A stretch of 64,000 nucleotides of DNA from a virus: positions 64,001 to 128,000 of the IMG/VR virus record IMGVR_UViG_3300011116_000922; one strand, written 5' to 3'. The translations under genes and the position numbers were made by a program. The notes under the pieces were generated by a model, which saw only the letters and a list, made by a program, of their open reading frames with translations, ran no database searches and was not told where the DNA came from. Position 1 is the first letter of the stretch; the number at the start of each line of letters is the position of its first letter. This document shows, piece by piece, positions 28,417-62,485 of the stretch.

Positions 28417-28464
28417 ATTGAGTCCTCCTGTACCGTATTTATAACCCATGCCATACATACTTGT

Positions 28465-36397: not shown

Positions 36398-37063
36398 TTA
36401 GACTACGGAAACCTGTTCGGACTTCCAAAGTGCAATGGCATCAGCCAGTGGCTCCACCCAATCCATAGTCTTGGCTTCGAATACTTGACATTCGCCCGTG
36501 TTGCTTACACCAATAATGATGGTGATATTGTCCACGCGCTGCCCTGTCAGGTCTTGCCACATGAGCGCATACGCTGCTCCCTGAGTAAAATAATCAGAGA
36601 TAGCGTCTTCACTTTTTGGATTTTTTGAAGTCTTGAAGTCCACCACAGATAGTACACCGTTGTACTCCGCAATACAATCTGTGCGCCCCGCCAATCCAAC
36701 CTTTTTCGACCACAGCGCAACTTCAATTGCGCGGATGTTGTCGATGCAGTCGATGTGCGGCTGCATGGTATTGAAAATATCCAATTCTTCCGTGCCCTTG
36801 GCTTCTTGCAGGGTGGTTTCGAATCGGTTTTGCAGGTAGTCTTCAATTATGGAGTGAACCTTCGTGCCGCGAGACAGGACCCTCTTGGATTCTTCGGGAT
36901 TGTCGCGCCGCCACTTGGCAAAGAAAGCACGCTTTGCCCATCCGGTCACGGTGGTAACAGAAGGAAAAACACCATGAGGTGTTGCGTAACGCCTTGATCC
37001 GTTTTCTTCAATTGTATTGATTTCACCCGTGATGTTCACGAACGCATGATGAAAAGTTTTCAT
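36398..37063 (-). CDS. PD-(D/E)xK exonuclease (Cas4/lambda-exonuclease-like)
   Basis: PSVTTV, RGT.VH, IE..L, AGRTDCI, VDFKTS, Q..AYA.M. Confidence 0.85.
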   Translation of the reverse strand: MKTFHHAFVNITGEINTIEENGSRRYATPHGVFPSVTTVTGWAKRAFFAKWRRDNPEESKRVLSRGTKVHSIIEDYLQNRFETTLQEAKGTEELDIFNTMQPHIDCIDNIRAIEVALWSKKVGLAGRTDCIAEYNGVLSVVDFKTSKNPKSEDAISDYFTQGAAYALMWQDLTGQRVDNITIIIGVSNTGECQVFEAKTMDWVEPLADAIALWKSEQVSVV

Positions 37064-51609: not shown

Positions 51610-51710
51610 CGTAACCCCTTTATTTTAAAGGACTTATGTGCAGTATTATTGGACATTAAATATTTAAATGCGGGAAAGGGCTTGCAAAGCCTGTAAATAT
51701 AGGGTATTAT
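51610..51710 (+). promoter_or_regulatory. early promoter with upstream palindrome and TATTATTGGAC box
   Basis: CGTAACCCCTT..AAGGACTTATG; TTGCAA-N17-TATTAT; ATG 8 nt downstream. Confidence 0.65.
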
Positions 51711-51718
51711 TTGGGTAT

Positions 51719-54028
51719 ATGAAGACTCTTTCCCCGACTGCCCCCATCGCACCTGTGACGGCCGTGAAGTCCGTGCTTGCGCGTCTGCTTGCCACCGAGA
51801 ATATTTCGGTTGAGCATCAAGATGTGCCCACGGCTGCGTTTGACCTCAAGACCCGTACCCTTATTCTGCCCCGTTGGAAGGACATGAGCAACGCGCTGTA
51901 CGATATGCTCGTCGGCCACGAGGTGAGCCATGCCCTCCACACGCCGCAGGACGGGTGGAAGACGGATGCCGATGCCCTTGCCGCCAAGCACGGCGTGGAC
52001 GGTGGCGTGGCGCGTCAGTACCTGAATATTGCAGAAGACGCGCGTATTGAGCGCATGATCAAGGACAAGTTCCCCGGTCTGCGTTCGGACTTCTTCAAGG
52101 GCTACGGCGAACTCCACGCCAAGAATTTCTTTGGTGTCACCGAAGCGCAGATGCCCTCGCTGGCCCTTGGCGACCGCGTGAACCTCCACTCCAAGTTGGG
52201 TCTGCATGTGGACGCGATTGTGCCGTTCACTGCGGACGAGGCCCTCATCCGCGATTTCGTGATGGGCGCACAGACTTGGGCAGACACCGTGGACGGTGCT
52301 GACCGTATGCTTGCGGTTGACGCTGCCAAGTGGAAGCAGAAGCAGGAGCCGCAGGAACGCGCACCCGAAGGGCAGTCTGCTCCGCAGGGCGACGAAACGG
52401 AAGACGGCGAAGACGCGCCCGGTGCTGACGGCGAAGACTCGCAGGGCAGCGAAGGCGAAGACAAGTCCGAGAGCGGTTCGGGCACCGAGGGTGGCGAAGA
52501 CAATTCGCAGGGTCGCGCCAACGACAACCCCACCGAAACGCAGACGGGTGAAGACGATCACGGCGGTTCGGGTGGCGAGAAGTCCACCAAGAGCGACATG
52601 CCCGGCCCGATCACGAACTCCTCCCTTGAGAACGCGCTCAAGAGTCTGAACGAAACCGCTAGCCGTGCCCCCAATGTGGTGCGCCTGAAGATGACCGCGC
52701 CCACGCTTGATGTGGTTGTGCCCTTTGCTGATGTGCTGAAGGATCTCAACGAGATGGCTACCCGTGGCAAGTGGAACCCCGCGCCTGTGCGCGAGGCTGA
52801 CTACAAGCGGGCTAGCAGCGCAATGGCTACCGCGTTCGACCGCCGCAAGTCTGCGGATATTTGGAAGCGCACCACTGTTGCCAAGACGGGTGCCATTGAT
52901 CCGCTCCGCATGACCCAGTACAAGTGGAATGAAGACATTTTCCGCCGTGGCACCCGCATTGCCGAAGGCAAGAACCACGGCATCGTGATTCTGCTTGACT
53001 GGAGCGGTTCGATGGGCAGCATCATGCAGCAGACCATTGGGCAGTTGATGATCCTCACGGACTTCTGCCGCATGGCAGGTGTGCCGTTCGAAGTGTACGC
53101 TTTCTGCGACCGCCCGTACACCACGCTGCCGGAAGGCATGGATCAGTACAGCGACGAAGCGTACCGTCTGCGCGACAAGGAGTACAAGCGTTTCAACAGC
53201 AATGAACACAACACCGCTTCTCCCACCTACATGCGTCTGCTGAACTTCCTGTCCAACCGCATGACTGCCGCGCAGTACGAGCGCATGAAGTCCCTGCTGT
53301 TCAACCACTGGAGCAGCATCGGCTACGATTCGCGCTACGGCATGGGCAGCACCCCCACTGCTGCTGCTCTGCACCACGCTTCTGCGGTGGTTGCGGAGTT
53401 CACGAAGCGCAATCGCATTCAGATCGCGCACACCATCGTGCTGACGGACGGCGATGCCACGGACGAGTACCGTGTGAACCGTGGCGGTGACGCGGTGCGC
53501 TCCACTTGGACGCGGGACACGCACTGGGTGATTGAAGACCCTGCCACTGGCGCGTCCTATGACCTGTGGAACACGCAGTACCGTGACGCTGACGGCAAGA
53601 CGCAGACCATGCGCCGTGGCACCGTGAACTGGGAAGCCGCTGCTAACCGTTCGGTGTGCATTGCAATCGACGCTCTGCGCCGCCGCACTGGTTCCAAGGT
53701 TCACTGGATTGGTCTGTCTGCCAGTACGCGCAAGACTGCGCCGAGCGGCATGGGCGGTTTCGTGCCGTTCGAAGACTCCAACTGGGGGCGTGACGGGTTT
53801 GCCCGTGGCAGTGCGGAAGGTTGGGACACCGCGGTGATGGCAGCGTCCTGCCGTTTCGGTGGCGCGGGTAACAACTGGATCGAAAAGCAGTTGGAAGCAA
53901 TGGACGACAAGATTGAAGGAGCCAAGACTAGCCGCACTCTCGTTAATGCAGTGGTGGACAAGCAGGCCATGACCAACTCGCTCCGGTCGCTTGCCACCAT
54001 CATCGGTGAATTCATCGCGGTGGCATAA
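51719..54028 (+). CDS. CobT-like protein: N-terminal HExxH domain, acidic linker, VWA domain
   Basis: LARLLATEN, VGHEVSHAL, EDARIE, LLDWSGSM (MIDAS), VLTDG. Confidence 0.85.
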   Translation: MKTLSPTAPIAPVTAVKSVLARLLATENISVEHQDVPTAAFDLKTRTLILPRWKDMSNALYDMLVGHEVSHALHTPQDGWKTDADALAAKHGVDGGVARQYLNIAEDARIERMIKDKFPGLRSDFFKGYGELHAKNFFGVTEAQMPSLALGDRVNLHSKLGLHVDAIVPFTADEALIRDFVMGAQTWADTVDGADRMLAVDAAKWKQKQEPQERAPEGQSAPQGDETEDGEDAPGADGEDSQGSEGEDKSESGSGTEGGEDNSQGRANDNPTETQTGEDDHGGSGGEKSTKSDMPGPITNSSLENALKSLNETASRAPNVVRLKMTAPTLDVVVPFADVLKDLNEMATRGKWNPAPVREADYKRASSAMATAFDRRKSADIWKRTTVAKTGAIDPLRMTQYKWNEDIFRRGTRIAEGKNHGIVILLDWSGSMGSIMQQTIGQLMILTDFCRMAGVPFEVYAFCDRPYTTLPEGMDQYSDEAYRLRDKEYKRFNSNEHNTASPTYMRLLNFLSNRMTAAQYERMKSLLFNHWSSIGYDSRYGMGSTPTAAALHHASAVVAEFTKRNRIQIAHTIVLTDGDATDEYRVNRGGDAVRSTWTRDTHWVIEDPATGASYDLWNTQYRDADGKTQTMRRGTVNWEAAANRSVCIAIDALRRRTGSKVHWIGLSASTRKTAPSGMGGFVPFEDSNWGRDGFARGSAEGWDTAVMAASCRFGGAGNNWIEKQLEAMDDKIEGAKTSRTLVNAVVDKQAMTNSLRSLATIIGEFIAVA

Positions 54029-54077
54029 GAAAATACTCGCTGCCCCGGCAGGAAAACCCCAAAAATTACGCAAAAGG

Positions 54078-54169
54078 CGTAAATCCTGCCGGGGCAAGGG
54101 GTTAAGTCAGTAATTATCGGACACTTTTTCACGCAAAGCCTTGAAATACAGGCAAAAATACAGTAGAAT
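54078..54169 (+). promoter_or_regulatory. early promoter with upstream palindrome and TAATTATCGGAC box
   Basis: CGTAAATCCT..AGGGGTTAAG; TTGAAA-N17-TAGAAT; ATG 7 nt downstream. Confidence 0.7.
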
Positions 54170-54176
54170 AAACACC

Positions 54177-55520
54177 ATGAAGACCGCTTTCTCGCTTTCG
54201 TCCTCCCAGTTCGCCTTTATCGCTGCCGTCCGTCCGCACCTCGCGGCCTTCGGCATCACCGCGAAGACCACTTCCAACGGTCAGAGTGTTGGATTCTCGC
54301 CCCTGTTCCGTGCCGCGCACAAGGCGGGCTATTCGGCTGTTCCCGCGTGGTGCATGAGCGCGGATCGCAAGTGCGGTCGCGGCGTGTATGTGCTGCCGGA
54401 ACTGTTTGCCGCTGACGGGGACATCACCGTGACCGAAGTGAAGCGTGGTCGCAAGCCCGGTTCCACTGCCGCGAAGGCAGAGAAGACCGCGAAGACCACT
54501 AGCGCGGTTCCGGCAGCACTCGCTGCTGCCGTTGTTGCTGCCGCGCCCACCACGCTGACGGCTTCCACCGTGTCCGGTGGCATTGCCGTGGGCACTGCCG
54601 CGTCCATGATCCTGTCGCTCACGGACGGTGAGCGCGACACCTTCACGCCTGACCGCGATGCCAACTATGTGGCATGGGGTTTCCACAGCGAAATCGAAAC
54701 CATTATCAAGTCCAAGGCATTCTGCCCCGTGTTCATCACTGGTATGTCGGGCAACGGCAAGACCACGATGGTGGAGCAGGTGTGTGCCAAGTTGAAGCGC
54801 GAGTGTGTGCGCGTCAACTTCACCGTGCAGACGGACGAAGACGAACTGCTTGGCGGCTTCCGCCTCATGGGCGGCGAAACCAAGTTCGTGCCCGGTCCCG
54901 TCCTTGTTGCAATGGAGCGCGGCGCGGTGCTGCTGCTTGACGAGGTGGATCTCGGTAGCCATGCCATCATGTGCTTGCAGTCCGTGCTTGAAGGCAAGGG
55001 CAAGTTCATTCCCAAGATCGGCAAGTATGTGCGTCCTGCTCCGGGCTTCACCATCGTGGCTACTGCCAACACGAAGGGCAAGGGCAGTGCGGACGGTCGA
55101 TTCGCGGGTACGAACCAGTTGAATGAGGCGTTCCTTGACCGCTTCCACTTCTGCTACGAGCAGGACTACGCTAGCGTGGCTGTTGAGAAGAAGATTCTCA
55201 AGAAGTACGCGGAGAGCGTGAGCGTGAACGATGACCAGTTCATCGAAAACCTTGTGAACTGGGCTGATCTCATCCGCAAGTCCTTCAAGCAGCAGATCGT
55301 GAACGAGATCATCACCACGCGCCGTCTGCGTGACATCGTGTTCGCGTACTCCGTGTTCGGTGACAAGATGCAGAGCATCGACCGCTGCGTGGCGCGTTTC
55401 GATGAGGACACGAAGTCCGCGTTCATGGAGTTCTACACGAAGGTGGATGCCACGGTGACCGCTGCCGCTGCTCCGGTTGATGCTCCGAAGAGCAACGATC
55501 CCAACGCTTGCCCGTTCTGA
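54177..55520 (+). CDS. CobS/MoxR-like AAA+ ATPase with N-terminal putative DNA-binding domain
   Basis: GMSGNGKT, LLDEVD, ATANTKG, NEAFLDRF, ITTRRL. Confidence 0.9.
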   Translation: MKTAFSLSSSQFAFIAAVRPHLAAFGITAKTTSNGQSVGFSPLFRAAHKAGYSAVPAWCMSADRKCGRGVYVLPELFAADGDITVTEVKRGRKPGSTAAKAEKTAKTTSAVPAALAAAVVAAAPTTLTASTVSGGIAVGTAASMILSLTDGERDTFTPDRDANYVAWGFHSEIETIIKSKAFCPVFITGMSGNGKTTMVEQVCAKLKRECVRVNFTVQTDEDELLGGFRLMGGETKFVPGPVLVAMERGAVLLLDEVDLGSHAIMCLQSVLEGKGKFIPKIGKYVRPAPGFTIVATANTKGKGSADGRFAGTNQLNEAFLDRFHFCYEQDYASVAVEKKILKKYAESVSVNDDQFIENLVNWADLIRKSFKQQIVNEIITTRRLRDIVFAYSVFGDKMQSIDRCVARFDEDTKSAFMEFYTKVDATVTAAAAPVDAPKSNDPNACPF

Positions 55521-56551: not shown

Positions 56552-56625
56552 GTCCCTGTAACTCAGCCGGATAGAGTAGCGACCTTCTAAGTCGCAAGTC
56601 AGTGGTTCGAATCCACTCAGGGACG
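56552..56625 (+). tRNA. tRNA-Arg(UCU)
   Basis: GTCCCTG/CAGGGAC acceptor, GCGAC-CTTCTAA-GTCGC anticodon arm, GGTTCGAATCC; CCA not encoded. Confidence 0.92.
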
Positions 56626-56647
56626 CTAGAACAAAGGAATAAATTAA

Positions 56648-56822: not shown

Positions 56823-56895
56823 GGCACTGTAGCCCAATGGCAGAGGCATTCGACTCAAAATCGAAACAGTGTGGGTTCGACTCCCACCAGTGCTA
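56823..56895 (+). tRNA. tRNA-Leu(CAA) with short variable loop
   Basis: GGCACTG/CAGTGCT, TTCGA-CTCAAAA-TCGAA, GGTTCGACTCC, discriminator A; CTAAATA just upstream. Confidence 0.88.
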
Positions 56896-56903
56896 CTAAA
56901 AAA

Positions 56904-58226: not shown

Positions 58227-58636
58227 ACAGCACCGGAGACAAGCACTACACGGAATACCTGCTGATAGACAAGCACGCCTGTCAGTGGATTTTCCGCGTG
58301 TTTGAAACCGATTGGGCAGATGTGCTTGTGCAGGTGTTACCGCAGGATGGGAGCAGCACTCCCCTTGTGTGGGCGCATCAGGTGCGGTACGCTCCGAATT
58401 TTCTAGCCCAGTTGCCGCCGGACACACGGCAAGCGGAAATGGCAAAGGCACACCTGTTTGAAAAGAAATATCGTGAGGTAACGGAGTTTGGGTACGACGA
58501 CCCCTCAACAGGCTGGGCCGTGGCAGGAATTCGCATCCGGTTCAACCGGGACAACACCATGCGGTTGGGCAAGGGTGACGCACGGCGGCTGTGGGAGCGG
58601 ATACGGCAAGACTCCCCCCACACATCTAAAATATAA
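58223..58636 (+). CDS. hypothetical protein with DARRLW C-terminal motif
   Basis: ATGA overlap; KGDARRLWERI. Confidence 0.6.
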   Translation: MNSTGDKHYTEYLLIDKHACQWIFRVFETDWADVLVQVLPQDGSSTPLVWAHQVRYAPNFLAQLPPDTRQAEMAKAHLFEKKYREVTEFGYDDPSTGWAVAGIRIRFNRDNTMRLGKGDARRLWERIRQDSPHTSKI

Positions 58637-58664
58637 AAATCACGAACGGTAGCCGTATAAATAA

Positions 58665-58746
58665 GTGTGGTCCGGGCAGCGTAGACAGGAGCGAACACTG
58701 ATTACGCTATTCGTGCAAAGGAACTTCGCTACCTTTCGACCGTCAT
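58665..58746 (+). ncRNA. putative structured ncRNA: three-way junction with kissing loops, SRP Alu-like
   Basis: Perfect TATAAATA (58656-58663), no ORF, P1/P2/P3 helices, loop-loop AGCGAA/TTCGCT, own terminator. Confidence 0.6.
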
Positions 58747-58748
58747 AG

Positions 58749-58790
58749 AGGGGGAGTCCCACGGGTAGGGACTCCCCCGCTTTTTTATTT
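58749..58790 (+). terminator. intrinsic terminator
   Basis: GGGGGAGTCCC-N7-GGGACTCCCCC-GC-TTTTTTATTT. Confidence 0.85.
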
Positions 58791-58793
58791 GCA

Positions 58794-59138
58794 TCAGGTT
58801 TCATCGAAAAGGCCACCCGCGACCATAATTTCTGCAATTAGTGTGGCATCCAGTACGAGATCAAGATTTCCGTACTTGATGGGAAAGCCTGTGGGGCGAT
58901 CACGCGAGGGCCACAGCGGCGGCACGGGTTCGGCTTTCACCGTGCCTGTGGCAATATCCACCTCAATGGGTGACACGCCTTCAATTCTCCAGTTGGGCAC
59001 AGACTCCACCACTGCGGATTGGATTTTTGCAGTGGTGCCCAAATCCGTGTCCGTGGTGGGTGCTGCTGCGGGGGTGTCGTTTAATTCGTTTGTACGGGCA
59101 GTGCGTTGTGCCTGAATAGCGTTCCAAGATAATGCCAT
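58794..59138 (-). CDS. hypothetical protein
   Basis: MALSWNAIQ...; SD GGAGG and CTACATA upstream. Confidence 0.65.
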   Translation of the reverse strand: MALSWNAIQAQRTARTNELNDTPAAAPTTDTDLGTTAKIQSAVVESVPNWRIEGVSPIEVDIATGTVKAEPVPPLWPSRDRPTGFPIKYGNLDLVLDATLIAEIMVAGGLFDET

Positions 59139-59202
59139 AGGGTTCCTCCCCCATATGTAGGAGCATGGAATAAAAAAACTAAATAGTGCTGGAGGACACC
59201 CC

Positions 59203-59742
59203 ATGCGATTTGAATCACAGAAATACCGCGCACTGAATGAAAGCATTTCCCGTATTGAAGAGGCTCCGGGCAGCGGAGTGGAAGGCGACTACGAAGGCGA
59301 GATGGCACGGGGTGAACTCAAGTCTGCCATTGCCAACGCACAGGAACTGCTTGAACTGCTTGGCGAAGACGACGAGATTGAAGCGTGGGTGCAGTCCAAG
59401 ATCACCAAAGCCGCGGACTACATTTCCGCTGTTCGCAACTACATGGTGGGCAACACCATTGAGGAAGCCACCGCTGCATGGCAGCGCAGTGCAGGAAAGA
59501 ACCCCGAGGGCGGCTTGAACCGCAAGGGCGTGGAATCGTACCGCCGTGAACACCCCGGCTCCAAATTGCAGACAGCGGTCACAACCAAACCAAGCAAACT
59601 CAAGCCCGGTTCCAAAAGCGCAAACCGCCGCAAGTCGTTCTGCTCACGCATGAAGGGCATGAAGGCTAAACTCACATCGGCTGAAACAGCGCGGGATCCT
59701 GATTCGCGCATCAACAAGTCTCTGCGAAAGTGGAACTGCTGA
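59203..59742 (+). CDS. DUF6321-like internal-protein candidate
   Basis: YRALNE N-terminus; EAWVQSKITKA.DY module; IEE|ATAAWQRSAGKNPEGGLN..RRKSFCSRM..WNC; CTAAATA upstream. Confidence 0.7.
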   Translation: MRFESQKYRALNESISRIEEAPGSGVEGDYEGEMARGELKSAIANAQELLELLGEDDEIEAWVQSKITKAADYISAVRNYMVGNTIEEATAAWQRSAGKNPEGGLNRKGVESYRREHPGSKLQTAVTTKPSKLKPGSKSANRRKSFCSRMKGMKAKLTSAETARDPDSRINKSLRKWNC

Positions 59743-59743
59743 A

Positions 59744-60007
59744 ATGGCTTCATCAACACCGCGTCCCGGACTCGCTGACCCAACAGGTCATGCCACACAG
59801 ATAAACGCTGTTGCGGTAACCACCACCGACATCACCGCGATCAAGGAAGAATTGATTGTTGAAATTGGTGAACTGCCACTGCCTATTCAGGGCAGTGTGG
59901 TGACTTCATACAACGGACTCACAGGTGCAGTGCAAGGCGTTTCCCAATTCAACGGTGCCACGGGCGCGGTGAGTTTCTTGGTGGACGGCGGCGAGTTTAC
60001 CGCGTAA
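59744..60007 (+). CDS. mini-protein with fibre-type SxNGxTGAV repeats
   Basis: SYNGLTGAVQGVSQFNGATGAV..VDGGEF. Confidence 0.6.
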   Translation: MASSTPRPGLADPTGHATQINAVAVTTTDITAIKEELIVEIGELPLPIQGSVVTSYNGLTGAVQGVSQFNGATGAVSFLVDGGEFTA

Positions 60008-61415: not shown

Positions 61416-62042
61416 ATGGAACTTCTCAACGCTTGGATGTTGTACCGACCTGCAACCGACACCCGGTTGCCTGATTGCGTGTTCTTTGAACATGGCGCAG
61501 ACGAGCGGTGGATGTGTGTGCAGTACCGTTCCGATGCGGACTACAAAACCGCTACTCGCGGTGCCGTGGGTCTGCCTGTGTGTCTTCTTCGCCGCAGCGT
61601 GGAATCCATGCGTGAGATTTGGACGCGATTCATTGATGACGGTTGGGTTCGTGTGGACGCTTGTACTCCGCAGGGCTGTTCGTTTGCTACTGCGGCAAAA
61701 CACGCATTTGTTCACCGCAACAAGATTGCCACCGATCAGCACAGCGGTGTGGACGGTATGTTTGGAACACTGACCCGAGACAGCGACCTGTTCAGCGAGT
61801 TGTATTTCGCAAAGAAACTTCCCACCCCTGATGGATTCCACGCGGTCAAGGGAATGCCCTTGTATTCGTTCCTGCGTTCCCATCGTGGCATGTTCACCAC
61901 TCCCCCGACTCCGCGCCCGGTTGCACTCCCCGATCCGGCACAGCAAATTGCAGAAATCTTCCGCCAAGCAATGGAAGAGGAGCGGGAGAAGTACGAGTCT
62001 GATTATTGGGGAAACAACACCAACTACGCCTTGGAGGCATAA
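61416..62042 (+). CDS. hypothetical protein with internal MREIWTRFIDDGW motif
   Basis: Leaderless start; motif shared with paralog family. Confidence 0.6.
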   Translation: MELLNAWMLYRPATDTRLPDCVFFEHGADERWMCVQYRSDADYKTATRGAVGLPVCLLRRSVESMREIWTRFIDDGWVRVDACTPQGCSFATAAKHAFVHRNKIATDQHSGVDGMFGTLTRDSDLFSELYFAKKLPTPDGFHAVKGMPLYSFLRSHRGMFTTPPTPRPVALPDPAQQIAEIFRQAMEEEREKYESDYWGNNTNYALEA

Positions 62043-62485
62043 TGTCAAAAACTCGCCGTGTACTTTTTGTGGATGATCTTCTGTATCGTTGGGACATTTT
62101 CAAGGGTCTGTATCAAGACCCCGAAACGGCTCATGTGGAATTCGTGTGGGCCAAGGATTACGACGAAGCCATTGCCCAACTGCAAAACGGAAAATGGGAT
62201 GTGGTGTTCCTTGACCATGATCTAGAGGATCCAATGGAATACGATCTCAAGATGGGTTGGCGTGACGGCAGTGCCATTGTGGATTGGATTCGTGAACACA
62301 CTCCACAAATTGATTTTGCGGTTTGCCATTCCATGAATCCCGTGGGTCGGCAGCGCATGATGTCAGGTTTGGAGCGCAGTGGATACCCTGCACGATCCAT
62401 TCCGTTTTACGCTTTTGACCAATCTCTGCATCCATTGGTTTCAGGTGGGGACGGCTCCAACATTTCAAATAACGAAACCGATTGA
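62042..62485 (+). CDS. receiver-domain protein, cyclic-phosphate-processing Rec type
   Basis: LFVDD, YDEAI, LDHDL, G..IVDWI, HSMNPVG. Confidence 0.75.
   Translation: MSKTRRVLFVDDLLYRWDIFKGLYQDPETAHVEFVWAKDYDEAIAQLQNGKWDVVFLDHDLEDPMEYDLKMGWRDGSAIVDWIREHTPQIDFAVCHSMNPVGRQRMMSGLERSGYPARSIPFYAFDQSLHPLVSGGDGSNISNNETD

Follow-up and report, generated by a model that had tools for sequence, protein, structure and literature searches.

The analyzed stretch, referred to here as the window, comprises 64,000 nucleotides, bases 64001-128000 of a 147,410-bp IMG/VR virus record with direct terminal repeats (IMGVR_UViG_3300011116_000922). The genome, with a G+C content of 0.50, belongs to an uncultured T4-like lake phage: its family-B DNA polymerase is about 50% identical to gp43 of cyanomyophages, and it encodes a homologue of the T4 late sigma factor gp55 (38% identity over 110 residues, E 3e-18). 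Near the end of the window, between a plus-strand gene ending at 58636 and a convergent minus-strand gene ending at 58794, lies a predicted small RNA gene. Two tRNA genes, the only ones found by ARAGORN and the Rfam tRNA model, lie 2 kb upstream on the plus strand (tRNA-Arg(TCT) at 56552-56626 and tRNA-Leu(CAA) at 56823-56896); neither recognized the element itself. Further upstream (51668-55520, plus strand), a 786-aa CobT-like protein (phrog_459, 'peptidase') is followed by a 459-aa AAA_5/MoxR-type ATPase, a pair that is conserved upstream of the element in its closest relatives. A DUF6321 protein with a basic C-terminal domain (59203-59742, plus strand) lies directly next to the RNA gene, upstream or downstream, in most freshwater relatives, and a functional link between the two is possible. 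The features of the locus are as follows.

58656-58663, plus strand: T4-type late promoter, TATAAATA.
58669-58786, plus strand: predicted transcript of about 118 nt, from the inferred +1 to the end of the terminator U tract.
58669-58672, plus strand: P1 5' strand, pairing with 58738-58741 and of the same sequence as the 3' strand of the 23S helix 69 stem.
58673-58713, plus strand: predicted P2 hairpin (58673-88 with 58698-713), carrying loop 2.
58690-58695, plus strand: loop 2 hexamer, identical to 23S 1932-1937 and complementary to loop 3, an internal copy of the target.
58696-58717, plus strand: block B, antisense to 23S about 1963-1983.
58717-58736, plus strand: predicted P3 hairpin (58717-21 with 58732-36), presenting the 10-nt loop 3 (58722-31), the anti-23S core.
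58718-58748, plus strand: block C, antisense to 23S 1914-1944 (part of the helix 69 loop, the helix 69 3' strand, the junction and the helix 70 5' strand).
58750-58786, plus strand: intrinsic terminator, a hairpin at 58750-78 followed by a T run.
58794-59246, minus strand: convergent 150-aa gene ending next to the terminator, a neighbor rather than part of the RNA, with no Pfam or PHROG family.

The observation made in the first-pass annotation, a perfect late promoter, a stretch without a credible open reading frame and a strong terminator, is confirmed, and every feature lies where it was placed. The promoter sequence occurs twice in the window, against 0.23 occurrences expected by chance, and four times in the genome. 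The second copy in the window (28436-28443, minus strand) lies about 20 nt upstream of a Shine-Dalgarno sequence and ATG and is a typical late-gene promoter in this phage; elsewhere in the genome, copies of this or the shorter ATAAATA motif sit 15-25 nt upstream of a Shine-Dalgarno sequence and ATG. The terminator hairpin has 11 pairs, 9 of them G-C. Within the intervening 81 nt or so, the only plus-strand open reading frame is a 27-aa GTG frame that starts directly after the promoter with no ribosome-binding site, and indels of 1, 3 and 4 nt between close homologues exclude a coding function. The minimum-energy fold of 58664-58750 is exactly the three-way junction of P1, P2 and P3 that had been proposed by eye, at -22.3 kcal/mol. 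This fold is no better than those of shuffled sequences, however (z = -0.42; 65 of 200 shuffles fold as well), and by itself is not evidence of function. The rule for T4 late promoters places +1 six nt after the last A of the promoter, and the family shows a fixed 5-nt spacer before a conserved G; together these put +1 at about 58669, so that the outer three pairs of P1 as first drawn probably lie outside the RNA.

BLAST over loci fetched through the neighboring DUF6321 gene found two homologues of the element, and three pattern scans of IMG/VR then raised the family to 40 contigs, giving 29 distinct sequences with the window. Single-protein searches with the two flanking genes found no usable relatives, and two candidates, one from a weak protein hit and one from a pattern hit, proved to be chance matches. 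Of the 29 distinct copies, 20 have TAAATA upstream, in most subfamilies exactly 5 nt before the conserved G that opens the P1 5' strand, and every copy that we inspected ends in a G+C-rich hairpin followed by a U tract on the same strand. The module sits in at least four different gene contexts (L numbers denote fetched loci): upstream of a convergent gene and DUF6321 in the window and the L166, L167, L169 and L172 group, in which the convergent gene has 32-38% identical homologues at the same place; directly upstream of DUF6321 in L170; directly downstream of DUF6321 in the L165, L173, L174 and L180 group; between two unrelated genes in the L164 and L175 group; and upstream of yet another gene in an A+T-rich group. 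The gene immediately downstream of the element in the L164 and L175 group is a homologue of a PD-(D/E)XK exonuclease (phrog_298) encoded at 36398-37063 on the minus strand of the window. Carrier phages share genes with the window phage at about 50-60% protein identity, and their loci have a G+C content of 0.33-0.45, lower than that of the window genome. One further locus (L182:3446-3659, IMGVR_UViG_3300029584_000003) has the 17-nt block B and the closing stretch at the 3' end of block C but a different middle, in which another hairpin replaces P3 and loop 3; it could be a chance hit of our pattern or a divergent relative with a replaced core. BLAST of the region and of two family members against 50,697 phage records found no cultured phage with the element. 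The cultured phage PA5oct has no BLAST match to E. coli 23S, no exact copy of the core motif and only chance-level one-mismatch hits to it. These data support an independent noncoding RNA gene, although its expression is inferred from the promoter and terminator: the single RNA run that holds part of the stretch yielded only contigs, which cover 59234-59746 over the DUF6321 gene and not the element, and is no evidence either way.

The first-pass interpretation of this locus is partly supported. A discrete noncoding RNA gene with a late promoter and a terminator, a probable role in dealing with the translation machinery, and absence from Rfam are all supported. The proposed resemblance to the signal recognition particle (SRP) Alu domain is not. 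A covariance model scan against Rfam found nothing at the element at the gathering threshold, and at E <= 10 across 58400-59000 no SRP model matched; the only hit was a terminator-like match to Xoo2, at 18 bits against a 45-bit cutoff. The UGC linker between the hairpins is not a conserved UGUNR turn, as homologues have linkers of 3 to more than 26 nt with different sequences.

Instead, the invariant blocks of the family are the reverse complement of bacterial 23S rRNA. Against E. coli rrlH, window 58718-58748 pairs with 23S 1944-1914 (27 of 31) and window 58701-58717 pairs with 1979-1963 (16 of 17); the two matches are collinear and antisense, and the 18-nt helix 71 hairpin between them (1945-1962) has no counterpart in the RNA. 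Our numbering reproduces the modified positions U1911, U1915, U1917, U1939 and C1962 and so is the standard one. To obtain unbiased confirmation, we searched the 87-nt body by BLAST against 2.3 Gb of phage records, which returned only 20 records, all aligned over the same 31 nt at the same identity. Seven of these are annotated 23S rRNA, evidently contaminants, and most of the rest are short unannotated records; where the record is a 23S rRNA reference entry, the match is on the minus strand. All 29 family members keep both blocks, and a covariance model built only from four phage copies scores the antisense strand of true 23S genes at 27-31 bits. No other anti-23S segment was found in this phage genome.

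The element also carries a lineage signature. The window has C opposite position 1938, where E. coli has A, and a scan of one genome from each of 185,579 species for the 20-mer carrying G1938 returned at least 120 rows, of which nearly all of those shown with titles were Planctomycetota. These 23S genes also carry G1918, which explains the C at that place in 25 of 29 family members. More broadly, the lineage-specific target bases (G1918, G1938, U1967, A1972 and C1980) are those of Planctomycetota, especially Phycisphaerales. In Phycisphaerales, the 23S stretch 1964-1980 and a further stretch about 10-20 nt downstream are the exact complements of the family's commonest block B and of an upstream 11-mer, and the identity of block C rises from 27/31 with E. 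coli to 29/31 with five Phycisphaerales genomes; block B of the window forms 18 Watson-Crick pairs plus 1 G-U pair of 22 against a Phycisphaerales 23S. Pairing-aware local alignment of whole elements to one Phycisphaerales 23S gives scores of 49-90, against a shuffle mean of about 18 and a maximum of about 30; in the longest subfamily (L202) there are 80 Watson-Crick plus 4 G-U pairs, reaching about 40 nt further downstream in the 23S than in the other subfamilies. The predicted hybrid energy of the window RNA is -97.7 kcal/mol, against -44.7 +/- 4.8 for dinucleotide shuffles and -22.3 for its own fold; alignment scores and hybrid energy lie about 10 standard deviations beyond shuffles. In a sample of 201 Planctomycetota genomes both G1938 and A1938 occur, and 20 genomes with A1938 all have G1918 and carry either C or U at 1967, which parallels the C/U and G/A polymorphisms of the element. 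We conclude that the RNA is an antisense derivative of a Planctomycetota-type 23S domain IV and infer that the host is probably a planctomycete. A search for other matches to the five Phycisphaerales genomes returned only the 23S site and tRNA-like hits, with no spacer-like match; the tRNA-Arg is 81% identical to a tRNA of a Phycisphaerales MAG, which is generic tRNA similarity and not evidence for a host.

The complementary loops on which the first reading rested have a simpler origin. Loop 3 is the center of the 31-nt antisense block, and loop 2 repeats the 23S target; likewise, the P1 5' strand repeats the helix 69 3' strand, and the P3 5' strand resembles 1926-1930, so that the 5' half of the RNA is a set of target-like segments that pair with the antisense 3' half. 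The 6-bp loop-loop complementarity (58690-95 with 58725-30) is present in the window. Covariation of these pairs had been set beforehand as a test, but the five pairs shared with homologues never vary and the sixth exists only in the window, and loop 2 is missing altogether in 7 of 29 distinct homologues. In the short A+T-rich subfamily, a second copy of the motif lies just upstream of loop 3 and can mask it locally. The 3' partner of P1 is likewise invariant. P3, in contrast, is 92-100% paired in 26 copies and has one A-U to C-G covarying pair; the U-to-G change involved breaks a pair with 23S A1927. The basal pair of P2 changes from C-G to U-A between the window and the L166/L167 group, and its distal stem changes from A-U to U-A between the L165 and L166 groups. 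An internal fold is therefore under some selection, and the pseudoknot remains plausible, but nothing links the fold to the SRP Alu domain.

Several patterns of variation bear on whether complementarity to 23S is used. In the 20 true copies from a scan that did not constrain it, the 16-nt core varies at a single site, C/U opposite G1938, at which pairing is kept as G-C or G-U. Flank columns opposite 1917-1919 and 1943, also unconstrained, pair in 25-27 of 29 copies. In the 15 copies in which block B was unconstrained, the frequent polymorphisms lie opposite U1971, U1967 and U1979 and are A/G, so that pairing is again kept. Other substitutions, however, break pairs: U to C opposite A1970 and A1978, transitions opposite C1963 and C1964, and the U to G opposite A1927 that is compensated within P3. 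The invariance of block C in the largest scan was moreover imposed by our own pattern. A mismatch opposite U1926, usually accompanied by one opposite C1925, is conserved across the family, and we cannot explain it. A metagenome scan for family members aimed at hosts with a variant helix 69 stem returned 88 hits, all of them genuine LSU rRNA genes with A1926. Many LSU rRNA genes in public metagenomes (contigs L331-L410) carry A at this position together with variant helix 69 stems; the U that the phage RNAs keep there would pair in such organisms but is a U-U mismatch against Planctomycetota.

Our preferred explanation, held with moderate confidence, is that the element encodes a late RNA, transcribed from a gp55-type promoter and ending at an intrinsic terminator, that acts in trans by base-pairing with host 23S rRNA. 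In this view, the RNA descends from, and stays complementary to, domain IV of a Planctomycetota-type 23S rRNA, roughly E. coli positions 1913-2000, with the helix 71 hairpin deleted. Loop 3 would present the invariant core, which complements 23S 1931-1940, as the nucleation site, and pairing would then spread over 1914-1944 and 1963-1980, so that the RNA clamps both flanks of helix 71 at the subunit interface; P1, P3 and the loop 2 copy of the target would act as a lid, holding the free RNA in a compact, partly self-masked fold. The likely consequence is interference with the folding of nascent 23S or with free 50S subunits in subunit joining, although the RNA might instead shield the site or mark it for cleavage, and this last step is the least certain. 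The gene module, its conservation, the complementarity and the lineage signature are established by the sequence data; expression, binding and any effect on the host are our inferences from them. The proposed targets, the helix 69 3' strand, the helix 70 5' strand and the 1963-1980 strand, are the bridge-forming elements of the subunit interface. A synthetic PNA aimed at helix 69 blocks translation and growth of E. coli (Kulik 2017, as cited in PMC12828698), and MazF-mt6 is reported to cleave 23S helix 70 (10.1101/432989), and the region is therefore both accessible to such agents and vulnerable. In mature ribosomes, however, the target is structured and partly buried, and a late RNA that blocks 50S subunits would seem to hurt the phage's own late translation. 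The lineage signature, furthermore, could reflect capture from an ancestral host rather than ongoing tracking.

The strongest rival, which we consider unlikely, is that an ancestral phage captured an inverted piece of host 23S rDNA whose conserved bases are now kept for a protein partner or for tertiary structure (a three-way junction with a pseudoknot between loops 2 and 3), complementarity to 23S being an unused legacy. The covariation of P3, which sacrifices a pair with 23S, the compensatory changes in P2, and the placement in several subfamilies of a copy of the target motif where it can pair with loop 3 all suggest selection for internal pairing, and the plus strand folds 8-13 kcal/mol better than the minus strand in the freshwater groups. 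The most conserved stretch, however, is invariant while its internal partners differ in place and sequence or are absent, which points to an external constraint; an RNA with 18-31 nt of near-perfect complementarity to the cell's most abundant RNA can hardly avoid meeting it; and the fold is no better than shuffles in the window or in several homologues.

Less likely still is a cis-acting punctuation module, a terminator with a structured 3' end that serves the upstream and convergent genes and happens to derive from rDNA. The position of the element between convergent genes in the window is consistent with this, as is the change in fold z-score from -0.42 for the body alone to -2.80 when the terminator hairpin is added. 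Yet the body, and not only the terminator, is conserved across phages whose terminator sequences differ, it carries its own promoter at a fixed spacing, and it occurs upstream or downstream of different genes, all on one strand in two of the groups of carrier loci (groups B and C). It is also improbable that the minus strand or the DNA itself is the functional form, whether as a sense-strand mini-23S decoy for a factor or toxin that recognizes helices 69-70, such as a MazF-mt6-like RNase, or as a site resembling the rDNA target of homing endonucleases. The minus strand does read like 23S 1914-1979 without helix 71, the I-CeuI-type site lies in this rDNA stretch, a convergent gene could read into the element in the window, and the folding energies of the two strands are not clearly different across the whole family (p about 0.1). 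The promoter and U-tract terminator, however, are on the plus strand in all of the homologues that we inspected, the hairpin has no U tract on the minus strand, neighboring genes are on the plus strand in most contexts, and no homing endonuclease gene is adjacent. The first-pass proposals of an SRP Alu mimic contacting the ribosomal factor-binding site, or of an RNA that self-oligomerizes through interlocking loops as phi29 pRNA does, retain only the three-way junction with complementary loops in their favor and are very unlikely, given the absence of an SRP match or conserved U-turn, loop pairs that are invariant or absent, and loop sequences that are fully explained by the match to 23S.

We also considered that the RNA might serve as a splint for a ligase in RNA repair. 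A 159-aa protein encoded at 62006-62485 on the plus strand has a cREC_REC domain ('cyclic-phosphate processing receiver', linked to RNA-repair systems; E 8e-16), and homologues lie within 2-7 kb of the element in several other contexts (L167 and L172 at +7.2 kb; L178, L179 and L184 at -2.3 kb; L202 at +3.6 kb). Searches of the genome, however, found neither Rnl2 nor RtcB, and the search for Rnl1 was uninformative because its controls gave no signal.

Among known systems, loop-presenting antisense RNAs and trans-acting base-pairing small RNAs (CopA/CopT of R1, RNA I/RNA II of ColE1, and phage-encoded small RNAs such as DicF) share a small, highly structured RNA with its own promoter and intrinsic terminator, a recognition sequence displayed in a hairpin loop, and longer complementarity behind it for helix propagation. 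Here, however, the complementary partner is 23S rRNA rather than an mRNA or a replication primer, the complementarity is split into two blocks that skip a target hairpin, and the RNA carries an internal copy of its target. Eukaryotic and archaeal guide or chaperone RNAs that pair with rRNA (C/D and H/ACA RNAs, U3) are likewise trans-acting small RNAs whose conserved segments are complementary to conserved rRNA, but no conserved C/D or H/ACA box motifs were apparent on nonsystematic inspection, no guide-protein genes are evident, bacteria are not known to use such guides, and the complementarity of this virus-encoded element (31 + 17 nt) is much longer. Synthetic PNA oligomers against helix 69 target the same interface region by Watson-Crick pairing but are artificial, short and unstructured, whereas the element is a natural, conserved and predicted folded RNA gene. 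The SRP Alu domain has two hairpins on a closing helix with potential loop-loop pairs, but the element shows no match to SRP models, no conserved UGUNR turn, no covariation of the loop pairs and no S domain. The stable RNAs C and D of T4 (rnaC and rnaD), which lie next to the T4 tRNA genes, are also small noncoding RNAs of unknown function from a T4-type phage encoded within about 2 kb of tRNA genes, but they have no sequence similarity to the family and no complementarity to E. coli 23S or 5S rRNA at E <= 1.

We know of no bacterial or phage RNA described as acting by pairing with rRNA, and full-text literature searches found none. If the pairing is functional, this would be a new route of host takeover or ribosome control, aimed at the intersubunit bridge region, and a natural counterpart of the antisense oligomers now being designed as antibacterials. 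A bolder reading, which we hold only tentatively as somewhat less likely than not, is that a clade of aquatic T4-like phages encodes an anti-ribosomal RNA, a late and abundant small RNA that invades the helix 69, helix 70 and helix 71-flank region of host 23S rRNA in free 50S subunits or assembling particles and in that way controls the host ribosome pool. Because such an RNA must stay complementary, its sequence would track lineage-specific 23S bases and serve as a built-in host barcode, giving a sequence-only way to predict hosts, which for this clade points to Planctomycetota (Phycisphaerales), a phylum with few known phages.
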